From positions 41,289,324 to 41,353,323 of the forward strand of contig NC_052146.1 in assembly GCF_902713615.1 (NCBI RefSeq): a stretch of 64,000 nucleotides of DNA. Reading direction: 5' to 3'. The notes beneath the pieces were generated by a model, which ran no database searches, was not told where the DNA came from, and saw only the letters and a program-made list of their open reading frames with translations. This stretch comes from Scyliorhinus canicula. Its lineage: Eukaryota. Both the position numbers and the translations under genes were made by a program. Shown here piece by piece: positions 3,574 to 40,174 of the stretch (its first letter is position 1; every line of letters starts with the position of its first letter).

Positions 3574-3736
3574 CTTTGGGGAACACGAAAGAGAAAGGAG
3601 TGAATTCGACAATATGGTGCCCTATGACACTTGATGCATCAAATATTGAATTAGAATACAGTGCATTTTAACTGACGCAACAAATTTCTTATGGTGTCAC
3701 AATGAGTTGTAGAATATTCTATTTTCTAAGTATGTT

Positions 3737-3962
3737 TTTAAAAAATAAATTTAGAGTACCCAATTATTTTTTTCCCAATTAAGGGGCAATTTAACGTGGC
3801 CAATCCACCTACGCTGCAGATCTTTTTGGGTTGTGGGGGTGGAACACACGCAGACACAGGGAGAATGTCCAAACTCCACACGGACATTAACCGGGGCTGG
3901 AATCGCACCCAAGTCCTCAGCGCCATGAGGCAGCCGTACTAACCACTACGCCACTATGCGGC
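3737..3962 (-). mobile_element. Short A-tailed HE1 SINE
   Basis: V-domain and the tail AATTGGGTACTCTAAATTTA(T/A)n. Confidence 0.8.
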
Positions 3963-5255
3963 CTATAATTATGTTTAATGCCATGTAACTGACAATGTAT
4001 TTATCAGTGACACTAATTTAGGGTGAATAAGTACATTCAATTTTGTTTCAACTCATTCTGGGATTTTTACCAGTTTTGTTGAGATTACAAACTGGATAGA
4101 ATTGTGATATTTAATGAAAACAGTAAAAAAATAAGAACAAAGAAAAGTACAGCACAGGAACAGGCCCTTCAAGCCTGTGCCGACGATGCTGCTCATATAA
4201 ACTAAAATCTTCTACACTTCCGGGGTCCATATCCCTCTATTCCCATCCTATTCATGTATTTGTCAAGATGCCCCTTAAACGTCATTATCGTCCCTGCTTC
4301 CACCACCTTCTTCGGCAGCGAGTTCCAGGCACCCACTACCCTCTGTGTAAAAAACGTGCCTCGAACATTTCCTCTAAACCTTGCCCCTCGCACCTTAAAC
4401 CTATGTCCCCTAGTAATTGACCCCTCTATCCTGGGAAAAAGTCTCTGACTATCGACCCTCTCTATGCCCCTCATAATTTTGTAGACCTCTATCAGGTCGC
4501 CCCCTCAACCTCCGTCGTTGCAGTGAGAACAAACCAGGTGTATTCAACCTCTCCTCATAGCGAATGCCCTCCATACCAGGCAACATCCTGGTAAATTTCT
4601 TCTGCACCCTCGCCAAAGCCTCCACATCCTTCTGGTAGTGTGGCGGCCAGAATTGAACACTATACTCCAAGTGTGGCCTGGCTAAGGTTCTATACAGCTG
4701 CAACATGACTTGCCAATTCTTATACTCAATGCCCCGGCCAATAAAGGAAAGCATGCCGTATGCCTTCTTGACTACCTTCTCCACCTGTGTTGCCACTTTC
4801 AGTTTCCTGTGGACCTGTACACCAAGATCTCTCTGACTGTCAATACTCTTGAGAGTTCTACCATTCACTGTATATTCCCTACCTGCATTAGACCTTCCAA
4901 AATGCATCACCTCACATTTGTCCGAATTAAACACCATCTGCCATCTCTCCGCCCAAGTCTCCAAATGATCCAAATCCTGCTGTATCCTCTGACAGTCCTC
5001 ATCACTATTCGCAATTCCACCAACCTTTACGTTGTCCGCAAACTCACTAATCAGACCAGTTACACTGATCCCTGCGGAACACCACTAGTCACAGCCCTCC
5101 AATCAGAAAGCACCCTTCCATTGCTACTCTCTGCCTTCTGTAACCTAGCCAGTTCTGTATCCATCTTGCCAGCTCACCTCTGATCCCGTGTGACTTGACC
5201 TTTTGTACCAGTCTGCCATGAGGACCTTGTCAAAGGCCTTACTGAAGTCCATATA

Positions 5256-5469
5256 TGATGTGGAGATGCCGGCGTTGGACTGGGGTGAGCACAGTAAGAA
5301 GTCTTACAACACCAGGTTAAAGTCCAACAGGTTTGTTTCAAACACGAGCTTTCGGAGCACGGCTCCTTCTTCAGGTTCTTCATTCACCTGAAGAAGGAGC
5401 CGTGCTCCGAAAGCTCGTGTTTGAAACAAACCTGTTGGACTTTAACCTGGTGTTGTAAGACTTCTTACC
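5256..5469. mobile_element. Penelope-like-element-derived palindromic insertion with minimal hammerhead motif
   Basis: Perfect 83-bp inverted arms 5294-5376 and 5386-5468; TSD GAAGTCCATATA at 5244-5255 and 5470-5481; CTGAAGA..GAAA core. Confidence 0.75.
5381..5423 (+). ncRNA. Minimal type I hammerhead ribozyme motif
   Basis: cattcac-CTGAAGA-a-GGAGC cgt GCTCC-GAAA-GCTC^gtgtttg: core, stem II, palindromic AGCT stem III, stem I cac/gtg. Confidence 0.65.
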
Positions 5470-5884
5470 GAAGTCCATATAGACAACATCCACTGCCCTA
5501 CCTGCATCAATAATTTTTCTGACCTCCTCGAAAACTCTATCAAGTTAGTGAGACACGACCTCCCCTAGTGTTACATGTCCTTTATTTTTATACTCAATTT
5601 TACCTTTTTCTTAAGTTCCAGGATATACAAGATGACAAACATCTGGGTTGGCAGCAAAAGATGAATATAGACCAGGAGCAATGTGTGCCAGATGGAGTGT
5701 CCAATAAAATCAATTTAAGATTCCAAAACTTCAAAATGAAAGTTAGAGGAATCTCTCACGGGAGTTGGACAGTATCATGCGTAAGTTGCAGTTTTCTTTT
5801 AACAGGTTTATATATTTTTTAATCTGCATGACAAACGGTATTTAAAAAAAATGTTTCTTTATTTTTAAATCCCATTAGTTACAA

Positions 5885-6068
5885 ACGCAATGTGCAGAAT
5901 GGACACTTATTCCACCTCATTGCTTGCTCCAAAAGCCAATTCAAATTGAAGCCAATTCATGGTCTCCACAAGAGGGATATACAAGCTCCAAGCTGACAAG
6001 AAAAGGCATTGCACCTCATCTTGGGCTTGATCTGACGCTTGATCTTAGCCAAAAGGCCGAGAAGTGAT
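5885..6068 (-). mobile_element. U2 snRNA-derived element (diverged pseudogene or SINEU-like SINE)
   Basis: 6068-6038 reads ATCACTTCTCGGCCTTTTGGCTAAGATCAAG (30/31 to U2 nt 1-31), followed by collinear U2-like blocks. Confidence 0.8.
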
Positions 6069-6289
6069 TCAAAAATTTTCTTGAGCAAATTTTTCATCCT
6101 CTCCTTTCTCAGAAACCCAGATACTGTATAATCAAATTAAAATCAACATATTTTCATTTAGGCCAATTAGTACAAGGAATCACAAGATCTGGCATATTAG
6201 ATGCATTAAGGATAGTAGAGAAGTTTGTAGGGCAGTCAAAAATATTAATTCTATTTTTACATTTTTCATGTTGTGATACTTTTTTAAAA

Positions 6290-6765
6290 TTATTTTTTTT
6301 TAATTTAGAGTACCCAATTCATTTTTTCCAATTAAGGGGCAATTTAGCGTGGCCAACCCACCTAACCTGCACATTTTTAGGTTGTGGGGGCGAACACGGG
6401 GAGAATGTGCAAACTCCCACACGGACAGTGACCCAGAGGTTGTGATACTTTTTAACCTGTCAAATTGGATGATTGAAGGAGAAAATGGTAAGGGGAGGGG
6501 GGGAATCTTTTCAAAAAGTATTTTGAAATATTTAATTAACTGTGCCTCTTTTCCCTTTAATTGGTACACTTTGCCCACTGATTTTCTCCTGGGTAAAGTA
6601 TTTAGTAGTTCTTATGTTATAATTTTTAACTGTCCGTGTGGAGTTTGCACAGTCTCCCCGTGTCTGTGTGGGTCTCGCCCCCACAACCCAAAGATGTGCA
6701 GGTTAGGTGGATTGGCCACCCTAAATTGCCCCTTAATTTGAAAATTACTCTAAATTTTTTTTTTA
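6290..6765. mobile_element. Two truncated short HE1 SINEs (minus ~6290-6437; plus ~6630-6765)
   Basis: V-domain and tail motifs; the first is flanked by a GTTGTGATACTTTTT duplication. Confidence 0.75.
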
Positions 6766-7019
6766 AGTTATAATTTTTATTTGAAAATTACAAAGTTTTA
6801 AAACTATAACATTCTATGAATATAAAATTTGATCCAATAAGGTGGTAACATAATTAAAATGGACAGTGTGATGGAGAGAAAGACACAAAGATAGTGTGAC
6901 ATTACATCTGTGAATCCAAATGGAAAGTTTAAGACCAGCTCACTCCAACTAGGTGCATTTAATCCATTAGCAAACATGTAGGACATACTAAAACTCCAGA
7001 GACTAACCAATTGGCATTA

Positions 7020-7995
7020 AGGAAATTCTCAGGAGTTCCTCAGAGTAGTGTCAGGCCCAACCATTTTCAGCTGCTTCATCAATTACCTCCTTCCCTCAAA
7101 GTGAGAAGTGAGGATATTCACTGATGACTACACAATGTAGAGTACCATTCGCGATTCTGCAGATACTGAAAGAATCCCCGAACAAATGCAGCAAGACCGG
7201 GAAGAATATCCAGGCTTGGACTGGCAAGTTGCAAGTAGCAGTCGTGCTACACAAGTGCAAGGTAATGACCGTCTCCAACAAGAGAGAATCTAACCAGTTC
7301 CTCTTGACATTCAATGGCATTACCATCACTGAATCCCCCACTATCAACTTCCTGGGGTTACCATTGACAGAAATTGAACTGGAACAGCCATATAAATACT
7401 GTGGCTACAAAAGCACGTCAGAAGCTACGAATCCTGCGGTGAGTAACTCATGTCCTGACTCCCTAAAGCCTGTTCACCATCTCCAAGACACAAGTAAGGA
7501 TTGTGATGGAATACTTTCCACTTGCCTGGACGAGTGCAGTTCCAACAACATTCAAGTAGCTCAACACCATCCAGGATAAAGCAGCCCGCTTGATTGGTAC
7601 CTCTTCCACAAACATCCAATCCCTCCAGCACTGACGAACAGTAGCAGCCGTGTGTACCAGCTACAAGATGCACTCGGGCAACTCACCAAAGCTTCTAAGC
7701 AGCAACTTCAAAACCCACAACTGCTACTATCAAGGACAAGAGCAGCAGAAACCTGGGAACACCGCCACCTGAACATTCCCCTCCAAGTCACTCACCATCC
7801 CAACTTGAAAATAGATCCCTGTTCATCACCGTCATTGGGTCAAAATTCTGGAACTCCCTCCCTAACAGAATTAGGTGTACCAACACCTCAAGGACTTCAG
7901 TGGTTCACAAAGGTAGCTCACCACTATCTTTCAAGGGAATTTGGGATGGGCTGGCCTAGCCAGTGACACCCACATCCCGTAAATTAATTTATAAA
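7020..7995 (+). mobile_element. CR1-clade LINE 3' fragment (second family)
   Basis: Degenerate PQ-S-..GP / F(T)DD RT motifs and ORF2 tail. Confidence 0.75.
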
Positions 7996-9009
7996 ATGGT
8001 TATTGAGCAGGTGTTTCTCCAACGATGCCGAGTATTGCAACCTCCTCTTCAGTACACTAAAGCTTACTAAATCCCTGTAAATACAATATTTTCAGACACT
8101 ATTTTCTAAATTTTTAATTAAGAAAACCATTTTACTTTAAAAAGGTAGCATAAGTAAAACAGGTCAGGTTTGTTTTCAGGTTGCGTTTTTTGGCAACATT
8201 GTATGTGCGCATTTCTACTGTTTCCCTGCCACATTTACAGTTTTACCGACTCGTGAAACATCGAGCACATTGCATCAGACTGGCCACAAACCTGACACTG
8301 CTAGATGGAAATTCTGCTAGATGGAAATTCCTGCAGTGGCAATGAGAAAAAAAGTGTTTTTGCCATTTTAATGCAGAAGTGGATAATTTAAAGCAGCAAA
8401 CTAACAAACAGAAAATATTGTACACACTCCGGCAGCATCTTGCGTTGAATATCTCCAGTTTCCGATTTGCAGCATCGTGTCACTTTTGTGAATTGTTAAT
8501 GATGACTTTTTGATGATTAATTAATATAATTAAAATATTAGGAGGGGCTGTTCTGGTTGTGGTGAAAGTGCAGCCATTATTTGATGCCAATGCTGTTTGA
8601 ACATAGTTAGTAAAAATGTAGTCGGCAGTTATACAATATTGTAAAACTTCAGACATTAAGACCTGCATATATTTCCTGCCTACCAAACCCATACTTTGGG
8701 GGCAGTAGAGTGACATTTGCGTGGGCCAGTGTGCATGCGCAGATAGTCACATTGCGTTGACAGGAGACATGACACAGTTTTGTTTTCGCAATTCAAGAAA
8801 ACTAATCAAATCAGCAGAACTCCGATTCAAAAGGTTTTCTAGATCATTCAATTTACAGAAGTTCCACTTGTCATGAAGCTCCTTTAATTCATATTTTCTA
8901 AAACATTAAAATGACTTGATTTTTTTTATTACTGAAAGCAGAACATTTTCACAAGAGGCCGAGACACCCATGTTCTAGGAAGAGTAGGTCAATATATATA
9001 AAATTATTT

Positions 9010-9660
9010 AGATGAGGGAACTAAATGTAATATTTCTAAATTTGCAGATGACACAAAACTAGGTGGGAGGATGGGCTGTGAGGAGGATGCAGAGATGCTT
9101 CAGTGTGACTTGGATGAGCTGAGTGGGCAAATGCATGGCAGATGCAATATAAATGTGGATAAATGTGAGGTTATCCACTTTGGTAGCAAAAACAGGAAGG
9201 CAGGTATTATCTGAAAGGCTATAAATTGAGAGGGGGAGGGAGGTAAAGGGAAACTCATAGAAACCTATCAAATTCTCGCAGGACTAGACAGTGTAGATGG
9301 AGGAAGGATGTTTCCAATGGTTGGGGAATCCAGAACAAGGGGTCACTGTCTGAGGATACAGGGTGGACCATTTAGGACTAAAATAAGGAGAAATTTTTTC
9401 GCCCAGAGAGTGGTGAGCCTGTGTAATTGTCTATCACAGAAGATAGTTGAGGCCAAACATTGTTGTCTCTGCGGAGACTGCAACTTTATGTTTTCAAGAA
9501 GGAGTTAGATATAGCTCTTGGGGCATAAGGGATCAAAGGATATAGGGAAGGGTAGGAATAAGCTATTGAGTTGGATGATCAGCCAAGATCATAATGAATA
9601 GCGGAGCAGGTTCGAAGGGCCAAATGGCCTACACCTCCTCCTATTTTCTATGTTTGTATG
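9010..9660 (+). mobile_element. CR1 3' fragment
   Basis: KFADDTKLGG; RRNFFAQRVV; tail ctcctattttctatg. Confidence 0.85.
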
Positions 9661-9892
9661 TGAAGCCTCTTTCACAATTCAATGAGATCATGGCTGATCT
9701 GTGGCCAAACTCCATACGTCTGCCGTCACCCAATATCCCTTAATATCTTTGGTGAACACATATCTATCAATAGGAGATTTCAAATTAACAATTGATCGAG
9801 CATCAATTGCTGTTTGCAGAAGAGAGTTCAAAATGTCTACCATCCTTTATGAGCAGAAAACACTTTTGCTGAGAAAAATTCCTTGCACTTAC

Positions 9893-37530: not shown

Positions 37531-38893
37531 AAATTAAATGAGGTATTAATTTGAGTCAGTATTCACCAAAGAGAAGGACTTGGTGGATGATGCGTCTGGG
37601 GAAGAGTGTGTAGATTGTTTGGGTCTTGTTGAGATTTAAAAGGAGGAGGTATTGGGGGTCTTGAAAAACATTAAGGTAGACAAGTCCCCAGGGCCTGATG
37701 GGATATACTCCAGAATACCGAGAGAGGAAATTTCTGGGGCCTTGAGAGAAAGCTTTGTATCCTCACTGGCTGCAGGGGTTGTCCCAGAGGATTGGAGAAT
37801 AGCCTATATTGTTCCTCTGTTTAAGTAGGATAGCAAGGATAATCCAGGTAATTACAGGCCGGTGAGCCTTACATCAGTTATAGGGAAATTATTGGAGAGG
37901 ATTCTTCGAGACAAGATTTACTCCCATTTGGAAATAAGTGGACGTATTAGTGAGAGGCAACATGGTTTTGTGAAGGGGAGGTCGTGTCTCACTAACTTGA
38001 TCGAGTTTTTCGAGGAAGTGATGAAGATAATTGATGAGGGTAGGACAGTGGATGTTGTCTACATGGACTTCAGTAAGGCCTTTGACAAGGTCCCTCATGG
38101 CAGCCTGGTGCAGAAGGTAAAGTTGCACGGGATCAGAGATGAGCTGGCAAGGTGGATACAGAACTGGCTCAGTCATAGAAGACAGAGGGTAGCAGTGGAA
38201 GGGTGACGGCTGTGACTAGTGGCGTTCCTCAGGGATCAGTGCTGGGACCTTTGCTGTTTGTAATATATATAAATGATTTGGAGAAAAATGTAACTGGTTT
38301 GATTAGTAAGTTTGCGGACGACACAAAGTTTGGTGAATTGCGGATAGCGATGAGGACTCAAATGATACAGCAGGATATGGATCTGTTGGGAGACTTGGGT
38401 GGAGAGATGGCAGGTGAAGTTTAATCTGGACAAATGTGAGGTACATTTTGGAAGGTCTAATACAGATGGGAAATATACAGTAAATGGCAGAACTCTTAAG
38501 AGTATTGATAGGCAGAGGGATCTGGGTGCATAGGTACTGAAAGTGGCAACGCAGGTGGAGAAGGTCAAGAAGGCATACGGCATGCTTGCCTTCATTGGTC
38601 GGGGCATTGAGTTTAAAAATTGGGAAGTCATGTTGCAGCTTTATAGAACCTTAGTTAGGCTGCACTTGGAATATAGTGTTTAGTTCTGGTCGCCACACTA
38701 CCAGAAGGATGTGGAGACTTTGTTTTTTTTTTTAATTTTTCAAGTTTTTTTTCAGCATTTATTCCATTTTAGTGAATCATTTATCACTTGTCAGTTTACT
38801 TAATCACCCAGGCCTTTTTTTTCCAACTCCTAAGTCTAATTTCAAAATAAAAATGACACATGGTGCAAATAGTCAACTAATTCCATCTTCTGA

Positions 38894-39622
38894 TCATCTT
38901 CCAACCTTTCCCAGCCTGTGATCAGTTTTGGGATCAGCTATTATTGACTGAACAGCTACAATGGCTTCATTAATCTTGGTCTGAAGGTCTCGTAGCTCCT
39001 CTATATGCAGCAACCGGAGGACTCGTGCAGCCTCATTCAAGGTGGCATCTCCAGTATCAAAGCCAAGTAAATGCTTTTCCAGAGATACAGTTAAACCCTC
39101 TTTTGATCGGTTTGCTTTTGCAATGGCCTCCGGACTTAGTCGCTCTTGCACCAAAATGCGAATAGCCTGCAACATTATCAGATAGTCATCGTGGCGCTGG
39201 ATTTGTAAAAGGTTAGCCAATGCCATCACACCAGCCTTAAAGTCAGCGTTGTTAATATCCAGATTAACAAGTGGATCGGTGCCTTTAGTAGCATCCTTTT
39301 TTACACTTTCTGCTGTACAATTCTTGTATTTATCTACATTATCTGAATATTCAAGTCTCACAGCCAAGCCCAGAAGCCAGTCAATATTTTCCTGTCTTTC
39401 CTGAGCCTTGAATGGACAGTTTACATCTGCCAGATACTTTTCAAAGCTTTTAGGCCATTCATTACTGTGCACATTTCGAAGGTTGCCTCTCTCTTCAATC
39501 TTGTAATGTCTTACCTTCTGATCTTCAAGCCACACAATTAAATTTCTAAATTCCACCTCATCTTTACAGTCAAACACGCCGCTGTTATGATACTCGAGAG
39601 CCGACAGTTTCCTCCGAAACAT
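38894..39622 (-). CDS. RTRAF: Intronless retrocopy of RNA transcription, translation and transport factor (C14orf166/CGI-99/hCLE); intact 242-aa ORF
   Basis: MFRRKLSALEYHN...EFRNLIVWLEDQKVRHYKIEERGNLR...ADPKTDHRLGKVGR; AATAAA at 38758-38763 (minus), poly(A) ~38723-38740, TSD GGATGTGGAGACTTTGTT at 38707-38724 and 39681-39698. Confidence 0.95.
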   Translation of the reverse strand: MFRRKLSALEYHNSGVFDCKDEVEFRNLIVWLEDQKVRHYKIEERGNLRNVHSNEWPKSFEKYLADVNCPFKAQERQENIDWLLGLAVRLEYSDNVDKYKNCTAESVKKDATKGTDPLVNLDINNADFKAGVMALANLLQIQRHDDYLIMLQAIRILVQERLSPEAIAKANRSKEGLTVSLEKHLLGFDTGDATLNEAARVLRLLHIEELRDLQTKINEAIVAVQSIIADPKTDHRLGKVGR

Positions 39623-40174
39623 TTTAGCATCCACCACGCAACTCGCCAACAATGGCTGGGAACGTCAACGCGTCACACTCGGATGTGGAGACTTTGTTGA
39701 GGGTGCAGAAAAGATTTACCAGGATGTTGCCTGGTATCAAGGGCATTAGCTATGAGAGGTTGGAGAAACTTGGTTTGTTCTCACTGCAATGATGGAGGTT
39801 GAGAGGCGACCTGATAGAAGTCTATTAGATTATGAGGGGTATAGACAGAGTGGATAGTCAGAAGCTTTTTCCCAGGATGGAAGAGTCAATTACTAGGGGG
39901 TATAGGTTTAAGGTGCAAGGGGCAAAGTTTAAAGGAGATGTACGAGGCAACTTTTTTTCACAGAGGGTGGTGGGCGCCTGGAACCCTTTGCCAGGAGAGG
40001 TAGTGGAAGCAAGCAGATACAATAGTGACCTTTAAGGGGTGTATTGACAAATATGTGAATAGGATGGGAAGAGAGGGATATGGTCCCCGGAAGAGTCGGG
40101 TTTTTAGTTCAGGCGGACAGCATGGTTGGCGCAGGCGTGGAGAGCCGAAGGGCCTGTTACTGTGCTGTACCTTA

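Follow-up and report, generated by a model that had tools for sequence, protein, structure and literature searches.

A perfect palindrome carrying a hammerhead motif lies in an intron of ANAPC5 of the shark Scyliorhinus canicula, and this locus raises the question of whether such a palindrome moves as an element of its own or was built on site from the RNA of another element. The analysed stretch of DNA, hereafter the window, was 64,000 nt long. The two arms (5294-5376 and 5386-5468) were each 83 nt in length and 100% complementary around a 9-nt spacer, and the hairpin was predicted to fold at -175.3 kcal/mol (z -24.9), with 0 of 200 shuffled sequences being equally stable. A 12-bp direct repeat, GAAGTCCATATA, was present at 5244-5255 and 5470-5481. 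When the insert and one copy of this repeat were deleted in silico, the RT frame of the host CR1, VDVVYMDFSKAFDKV, was restored, and a CR1 paralogue elsewhere in the window (approximately 37974-40108) contained the 12-mer once; the direct repeat is therefore a true target duplication. The host LINE is taken here to be CR1 on the basis of its RT motifs. One extra base, C5469, was found at the right junction and matched neither the element nor the target. ANAPC5 is encoded on the minus strand, where tblastn with a 760-aa shark orthologue revealed 14 exons in order; by this exon count the insert is located between exon 13 (10017-9892) and exon 14 (3575-3465). The palindrome, its duplication within a CR1 and its position in intron 13 were thus all confirmed as the earlier note had described them from the letters. 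The left arm extended 38 nt beyond the palindrome (5256-5293), into a Penelope tail that the earlier note had overlooked. The features of the locus are as follows, with element positions counted from the A of ATTCAC as +1.

5244..5255, plus strand: left copy of the target site duplication (TSD), 12 bp, the mode of the family
5256..5293, minus strand: Penelope tail of 38 nt (element +88 to +125) that stops immediately ahead of the parent's ORF start codon and is absent from the other arm
5294..5376, minus strand: left arm, pLTR/5' UTR from +5 to +87, in sense orientation relative to the ANAPC5 pre-mRNA
5343..5376, minus strand: hammerhead motif of the pre-mRNA strand, helix I of 2 bp, predicted cut after 5346
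5377..5385, plus strand: centre, found once in the genome, with 4 nt repeating a piece of the left arm followed by element -1 to +4
5381..5468, plus strand: right arm, pLTR/5' UTR from -1 to +87, without the tail
5385..5419, plus strand: complete minimal type I hammerhead motif
5469..5469, plus strand: single base foreign to element and target
5470..5481, plus strand: right copy of the TSD
4201..5566, minus strand: old, broken CR1-type LINE fragment hosting the insertion, extent as aligned
3576..9891, minus strand: ANAPC5 intron 13, ends approximate

Two other repeats could be seen in the window. The CR1-type LINE paralogue at 37974-40108 was 78-88% identical to the host LINE, and its target site was empty. 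At 6290-6440 lies a short repeat-like insert, probably a SINE; the 15-nt sequence GTTGTGATACTTTTT, which occurs on both sides of it (6270-6284 and 6439-6453), would be its TSD.

The plus-strand hammerhead motif read as previously claimed, with helix I (CAC/GTG), CTGAAGA, an extra A, helix II (GGAGC/GCTCC), GAAA, the palindromic AGCT and C5416. In sequence, the conserved core, the extra base after position 9, the G10.1-C11.1 pair and a palindromic helix III (AGCU in the RNA) were all present. A relaxed hammerhead pattern gave 2 matches in the window and 0 in 100 shuffles; in a genome-wide search, a relaxed motif gave 47,008 matches against 14 in the control. The monomer was predicted to form helices I and II (z -1.94). 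An Rfam search, which the earlier note had put forward as a check, returned 8 matches at E values up to 10, none of which was a hammerhead family; these were generic hairpins below the gathering scores. Because minimal forms lack helix III, this miss is weak evidence. Among the first 100 of the 47,008 relaxed matches, variation between subfamilies recurred at position 7 and in loop II, which are free positions in hammerheads. The relaxed pattern fixed the core, so that only helix II and its loop provide an independent test, and no compensatory changes were seen in these first 100 matches.

The cut predicted after C5416 concerns the plus-strand motif, and C5416 is antisense to ANAPC5, a point missing from the earlier note; its equivalent on the pre-mRNA strand is 5346. 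The copy on that strand begins at +5, has lost all but 2 bp of helix I and is enclosed within the hairpin. In the hairpin context the modelled probability of stem II was 4e-19, in agreement with the proposal that the hairpin would mask the ribozyme. A dimer in cis is not possible because the two hammerhead copies lie on opposite strands. In a cofolded pair of monomers the catalytic dimer was not the lowest-energy form, and dimer activity is therefore without computational support here. Minimal PLE hammerheads were reported to cleave poorly even as dimers (PMC4209133). The pLTR together with its tail folded no better than shuffled sequences (z -0.1 to -1.2). The predicted ribozyme at the ANAPC5 locus is most likely silent. 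The dsRNA hairpin is a plausible, putative substrate of ADAR or Dicer.

A genome search using 5256-5385 gave 157 candidates, 40 of which were scored, all being 98-100% identical. Extension past the 38-nt tail reached an ORF start followed by an intact 905-aa ORF, which was found in 6 of the 11 long loci scanned, the ORFs of the other five being broken. The pLTRs of the long loci were 99-100% identical to the arm, and the arms showed 100% identity to the pLTR of an autonomous element whose 905-aa ORF is intact, which supports the Penelope-like origin suggested earlier. The repeat unit of the element was 2,984 nt. The right arm corresponds to element -1 to +87 and the left arm to +5 to +125, with the ATG immediately after, and a TATA box, TATATAAA, is located approximately 30 nt upstream of +1.

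Pfam analysis of the 905-aa protein revealed an RVT_1 domain (E 7e-10). It gave no GIY-YIG match on this protein itself; some relatives carry PF01541, and the profile match of the nuclease region to I-TevI was weak (E 0.34). Among 54 aligned proteins, the nuclease residues Y792, YxG 805-807, R816, H820, E866 and N881 were conserved (R, H, E and N in 52-54 of 54), the CCHH motif (C796, C800, H820, H836) was kept in 52-54 of 54, and the CX4CxxC linker (C753, C758, C761) was present in 54 of 54. For the structure, an alignment-based model with a pLDDT of 91 was used; an alignment-free model of the C-terminal third had a pLDDT of 34.5. In the structure search with predicted coordinates, ranks 1-8 were TERTs (E 9e-9 to 7e-7), with low TM-scores of 0.23-0.30; a nearest match to telomerase is what an EN+ PLE should show. 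The family showed partial-tandem pLTRs, an inverted 5' copy, a one-sided tail of 30-40 nt and a TSD, as fits EN+ PLEs, and the parent can be assigned to them from its sequence as a single ORF with an RT and a predicted C-terminal GIY-YIG nuclease. According to PMC8557442, the CCHH nuclease motif defines EN+ PLEs and the CX2-5CxxC linker is common to Neptune and Nematis; on that basis the predicted protein belongs to a PLE with a C-terminal nuclease, of either the Neptune or the Nematis type. The former is assumed because it is the type reported from vertebrates (PMC4209133).

Four assembled contig sets, guessed to be RNA, covered 30 of 30 element bins with no intron-like joint; strand, level and ends are invisible in such contigs, which were therefore left out of the evidence. 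At L075 (contig C1, 301.41 Mb), two full 905-aa ORFs stood head to head in a single insertion, a palindrome of approximately 6 kb in which only one of the two ends carried the tail. Another locus (L061:1-8001) was a tandem of at least three copies, in which the ORF was broken by a 277-bp deletion into parts of 103 aa and 710 aa; an intron was considered for this gap and rejected, its ends being a GGA microhomology and not GT-AG. Older subfamilies with CTGAGGA and CTGATGA cores (L236-L265) outnumbered the young one approximately three to one, and their TATA box, tail and 5' boundary were all as in the young family.

The genome contained 12,290 exact copies of the 37-nt hammerhead (control 0), which, together with the parent 905-aa ORF, provided the copy count and the link to an autonomous GIY-YIG PLE that the earlier note had put forward as checks. 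Head-to-head palindromes with a centre of at most 15 nt numbered 986 (control 0), and the ANAPC5 locus by itself is an ordinary one among about a thousand. Its centre junction occurred only once in the genome, which argues that the palindrome was made in place. The first 50 of the 986 palindromes had 29 different centres, of which the recurrent ones were simple microhomology joins, and small templated inserts were present at some centres. The arms of these 50 palindromes differed from the reference at 17 of 9,945 bases; by this measure of sequence divergence the family is very young, as had been proposed, and the head-to-head pLTR arms likewise agree with an inverted 5' copy. The further proposal of a separate non-autonomous element was not upheld, the arms being those of the autonomous pLTR, the centre being unique and the 50 sister palindromes having 29 centres.

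Two head-to-head insertions of 2.8 kb on contig C1, L083/L084 (1.7215-1.7243 Mb) and L089/L090 (2.8418-2.8446 Mb), shared an identical complex centre of 29 nt found nowhere else, and were 1.1 Mb apart with different TSDs. Re-copying could explain this twin centre, as could gene conversion or an artefact of the assembly, and whole-palindrome copying may thus occur at least rarely.

RNA cut by the ribozyme was considered as the template and rejected. Palindromes centred near the cut site numbered 50 against the 986 near +1, and most of these 50 were joined through the AGCT palindrome. Starts at +36 preceded by G numbered 280, with 3 of 30 being true junctions by eye and 2 by script, against 208 at the control position +42, with 6 of 30. 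Ends at the cut site were thus not enriched, and the genome gave no trace of copied cut RNA.

Element ends were mapped in the first 94 of 100 listed exact hammerhead matches (contig C1, 0-39.6 Mb), a sample of one chromosome arm that was partly scored by eye; the last 6 matches, the ANAPC5 locus among them, were left out. The 3' ends fell at +84 to +94 in 42 of 94 and at +121 to +131 in 47 of 94, with 5 elsewhere. The 5' starts fell at -2 to +6 in 45 of 94, with few just upstream; the search pattern begins at +6, so that starts further in are under-sampled and appear in the data as partner arms only. Visual inspection of the sample gave 45 head-to-head pairs and 16 single-arm copies, after exclusion of L089/90, whose centre duplicates that of another pair, and of an older, diverged pair in L136. 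Each of the 45 pairs, scored in the same way, had exactly one tailed end, with one tail-less arm stopping early at +51. In the set of 50 short palindromes, which has 10 loci in common with the 45 pairs, one end with a tail and one without were found in 45, with 0 tail/tail and 0 short/short combinations; the other 5 had mutations beyond the script. The TSD measured 12-16 nt in 40 of these 50, with a mode of 12 (19 at 12 nt); longer TSDs include element overlap, and the TSD script missed the ANAPC5 locus owing to the extra C5469.

Paired arms belonged to the same length class, with 31 short-short pairs, 14 long-long pairs and 0 mixed pairs (Fisher p 6e-12). Arm lengths within the 14 long pairs were not significantly correlated (rho 0.42, p 0.13), and the tail-less arm was longer in 11 and the tailed arm in 3. 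Among clearly unequal pairs, the tail-less arm was longer in L085 (arm starts -110 vs -663), L140 and L145, and the tailed arm in L124, L136 and L106; in several long pairs the 5' ends were nearly equal. Single-arm copies had 12 tailed and 4 tail-less ends (16 copies, by eye), and 7 of the 16 started at -4 to +5. Approximately 5 of the 31 short pairs joined at -12 to -34, upstream of the proposed start. The base before +1 differed from the genomic C in 1,206 cases; a hand count of the first 100 listed gave G in 62, A in 32 (18 being self-complementary joins) and T in 6. When 16 of the G cases were checked in context, the other arm or the target accounted for 6, leaving 10 unexplained. This suggests, short of proof, that the G before +1 may be a copied cap, a signature known from LINE-1.

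The ANAPC5 insertion is likely a 5'-UTR-only, head-to-head insertion of a Neptune-type PLE, built on site by two cDNAs that were primed at fixed sites and both ran off at the 5' end of the RNA. Two cDNAs are the simplest reading because both outer ends of the palindrome are element 3' ends of the kinds found in long and single copies. The GIY-YIG nuclease would leave 3' overhangs of 12 nt, one of which would prime at the tail site (approximately +125) and the other at the tail-less site (approximately +89). Position +1, 30 nt below TATATAAA, would be the capped transcription start, and run-off of both cDNAs at the RNA 5' end would make the 5' ends of the inserted copies pile up near +1. If the mRNA were primed in its first pLTR, only cDNAs of 85-125 nt, and hence stubs, would result, and long copies would come from priming in a pLTR further downstream. 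If the protein requires an ORF start downstream, a pLTR-ORF-pLTR transcript would be primable only in its first pLTR, and long copies would need a longer tandem. Both cDNAs probably came from one RNA, as is suggested by the lack of mixed short/long pairs; this step, the least certain of the model, would require displacement of a strand. Microhomology repair would then seal the 3' ends of the cDNAs, adding a small templated insert; the centre at the ANAPC5 locus has the look of such a join, with a templated insert of 4 nt, and resembles the products of polymerase-theta repair. The hammerhead would be carried passively as part of the 5' UTR, with uncut RNA as the template. The stub is probably a dead end because it has no ORF start and, in the plus-strand sense, no TATA box.

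Biochemical work on the Anolis Penelope protein bears on this proposal from both sides. The protein cuts and extends both strands in vitro, uses two internal start sites that define the tail, and needs the ORF start on the RNA but not ribozyme cleavage; its start sites showed no strand preference in vitro, which counts against the proposal, and its element belongs to the Poseidon clade (PMC11167929). With the chances about evenly balanced, every inverted Penelope insertion may come from one obligately asymmetric reaction, in which one complex uses one capped RNA, two sites 38 nt apart and a 12-nt stagger, the tail marks the strand and site, and the mini-palindromes are strong-stop-like run-offs recording start and cap.

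The inverted arm could also be produced by a single priming event, either by one cDNA snapping back or by self-priming of an antisense template (PMC3846280). This would account for the pairing of short with short arms and for the nearly equal 5' ends of several long pairs, and the small templated inserts at centres suit snap-back synthesis. However, a copy of the tailed cDNA cannot outgrow its template, and the tail-less arm was the longer one in 11 of 14 long pairs. A tail-less cDNA, in turn, cannot provide a tail, and both end types occur alone in single-arm copies; fold-back is therefore considered improbable. An explanation to which we give a similarly small chance has two primings on two RNAs held by a protein dimer, the 5' pile-up resulting from later trimming or collapse of centres rather than from the RNA start. 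Long perfect palindromes are unstable, which suits trimming, as do the joins at -12 to -34 that use the TATATA palindrome, and the Anolis protein is a predicted dimer (PMC11167929). Two independent RNAs, however, sit poorly with 0 mixed pairs in 45, and trimming with the palindrome-free single-arm copies that also start at -4 to +5 (7 of 16) and with a sharp boundary below a TATA box retained in older subfamilies.

It seems very unlikely that the palindrome is itself a non-autonomous ribozyme retroelement, self-contained and moving as a unit, although about a thousand look-alike palindromes exist, simple centres are in some cases recurrent, a second copy of one long palindrome lies in a different TSD, and retrozyme-like tandem pLTR arrays occur elsewhere in the genome. 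A unit mover would not explain the unique ANAPC5 centre or the 29 centres among 50 copies, with only simple microhomology joins recurring; its outer ends match both ends of ordinary long copies, and no diagnostic difference separates it from the autonomous pLTR. Assembly on site from two run-off cDNAs is thus preferred.

The architecture of such insertions has already been published, and the many shark copies give an unusually clear picture of its likely formation. Inverted pLTRs, a one-sided tail, a TSD and TATA/initiator motifs were described in PMC3846280, PMC8557442 and PMC2377424; the palindromes were explained by self-priming on an antisense template in PMC3846280, and the origin of the PLE inverted repeats and tails was named unresolved in PMC8557442. 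A literature search that covered the main texts of openly accessible papers found neither an explicit two-cDNA head-to-head model nor a paper on a shark element. With thousands of near-identical copies and intact 905-aa elements, the shark genome provides a test bed for this open mechanism, and the sharp predictions of the two-cDNA model (one tailed and one tail-less start, a 12-nt stagger and run-off at +1) suit the system of PMC11167929. The roughly one thousand perfect hairpins of 80-90 bp may also be a putative source of dsRNA or of DNA fragility in the genome.

LINE-1 twin priming likewise uses the two target strands as cDNA primers and leaves the 5' part of the copy inverted. Its two cDNAs derive from separate stretches of the RNA and its second start is random, whereas the proposed shark cDNAs overlap and have two fixed starts. 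The hammerhead agrees with those of metazoan PLEs in its core, the extra base between 9 and 10.1, the G10.1-C11.1 pair, the palindromic 15.2-16.2 and the lack of loop 3; the copies there are also mostly dispersed and truncated, with some pairs on opposite strands (PMC4209133). The same source gives approximately 9,000 matches in Xenopus, against 47,008 relaxed matches in the shark, where sequence variability is very low.

Non-LTR retrozymes (bioRxiv 10.64898/2026.07.22.740005) are likewise non-coding, derived from pLTRs and equipped with a type I hammerhead. They are described as head-to-tail tandems with at least two hammerheads on one strand, whereas the ANAPC5 locus has one motif per strand, and on this ground it was ruled out as a retrozyme. 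Two tandem arrays, L062 and L050, fit the retrozyme class better than the ANAPC5 locus does. L062:1401-5471 (contig C2, 78.218-78.222 Mb) has a 333-nt unit of pLTR and ORF start repeated approximately six times to either side of a head-to-head centre, the whole lying within one TSD; L050:1196-2185, unrelated to it, has 2.5 copies of an approximately 352-nt unit of pLTR and ORF start. The units of both arrays begin at element position -103, are retrozyme-like and are candidates for circular templates and dimer cleavage.

PAc, the Poseidon element of Anolis carolinensis (PMC11167929), resembles the shark element in having two adjacent internal RT starts that define the tail, in cutting and extending both target strands, and in a pLTR hammerhead whose cleavage is dispensable. 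The shark element differs in its Neptune-type linker and in start sites located upstream of or at the ATG, compared with 111-118 nt inside the ORF in PAc; the main text of PMC11167929 does not address inverted insertions and does not report one start site per strand. Insertions of Pen2a_Av and other EN+ PLEs (PMC3846280, PMC8557442) share the head-to-head pLTRs, the one-sided tail and the TSD. In this group the tail is 30-40 nt long, the pLTR has a TATA and an initiator-like motif, and the ORF starts at the pLTR end, likewise here. Unlike that group as described in these sources, the shark arms consist of the 5' UTR only, exist as about a thousand stubs and have a TSD mode of 12, and by the shark counts two cDNAs copied from sense RNA are more likely than the antisense self-priming put forward in PMC3846280.
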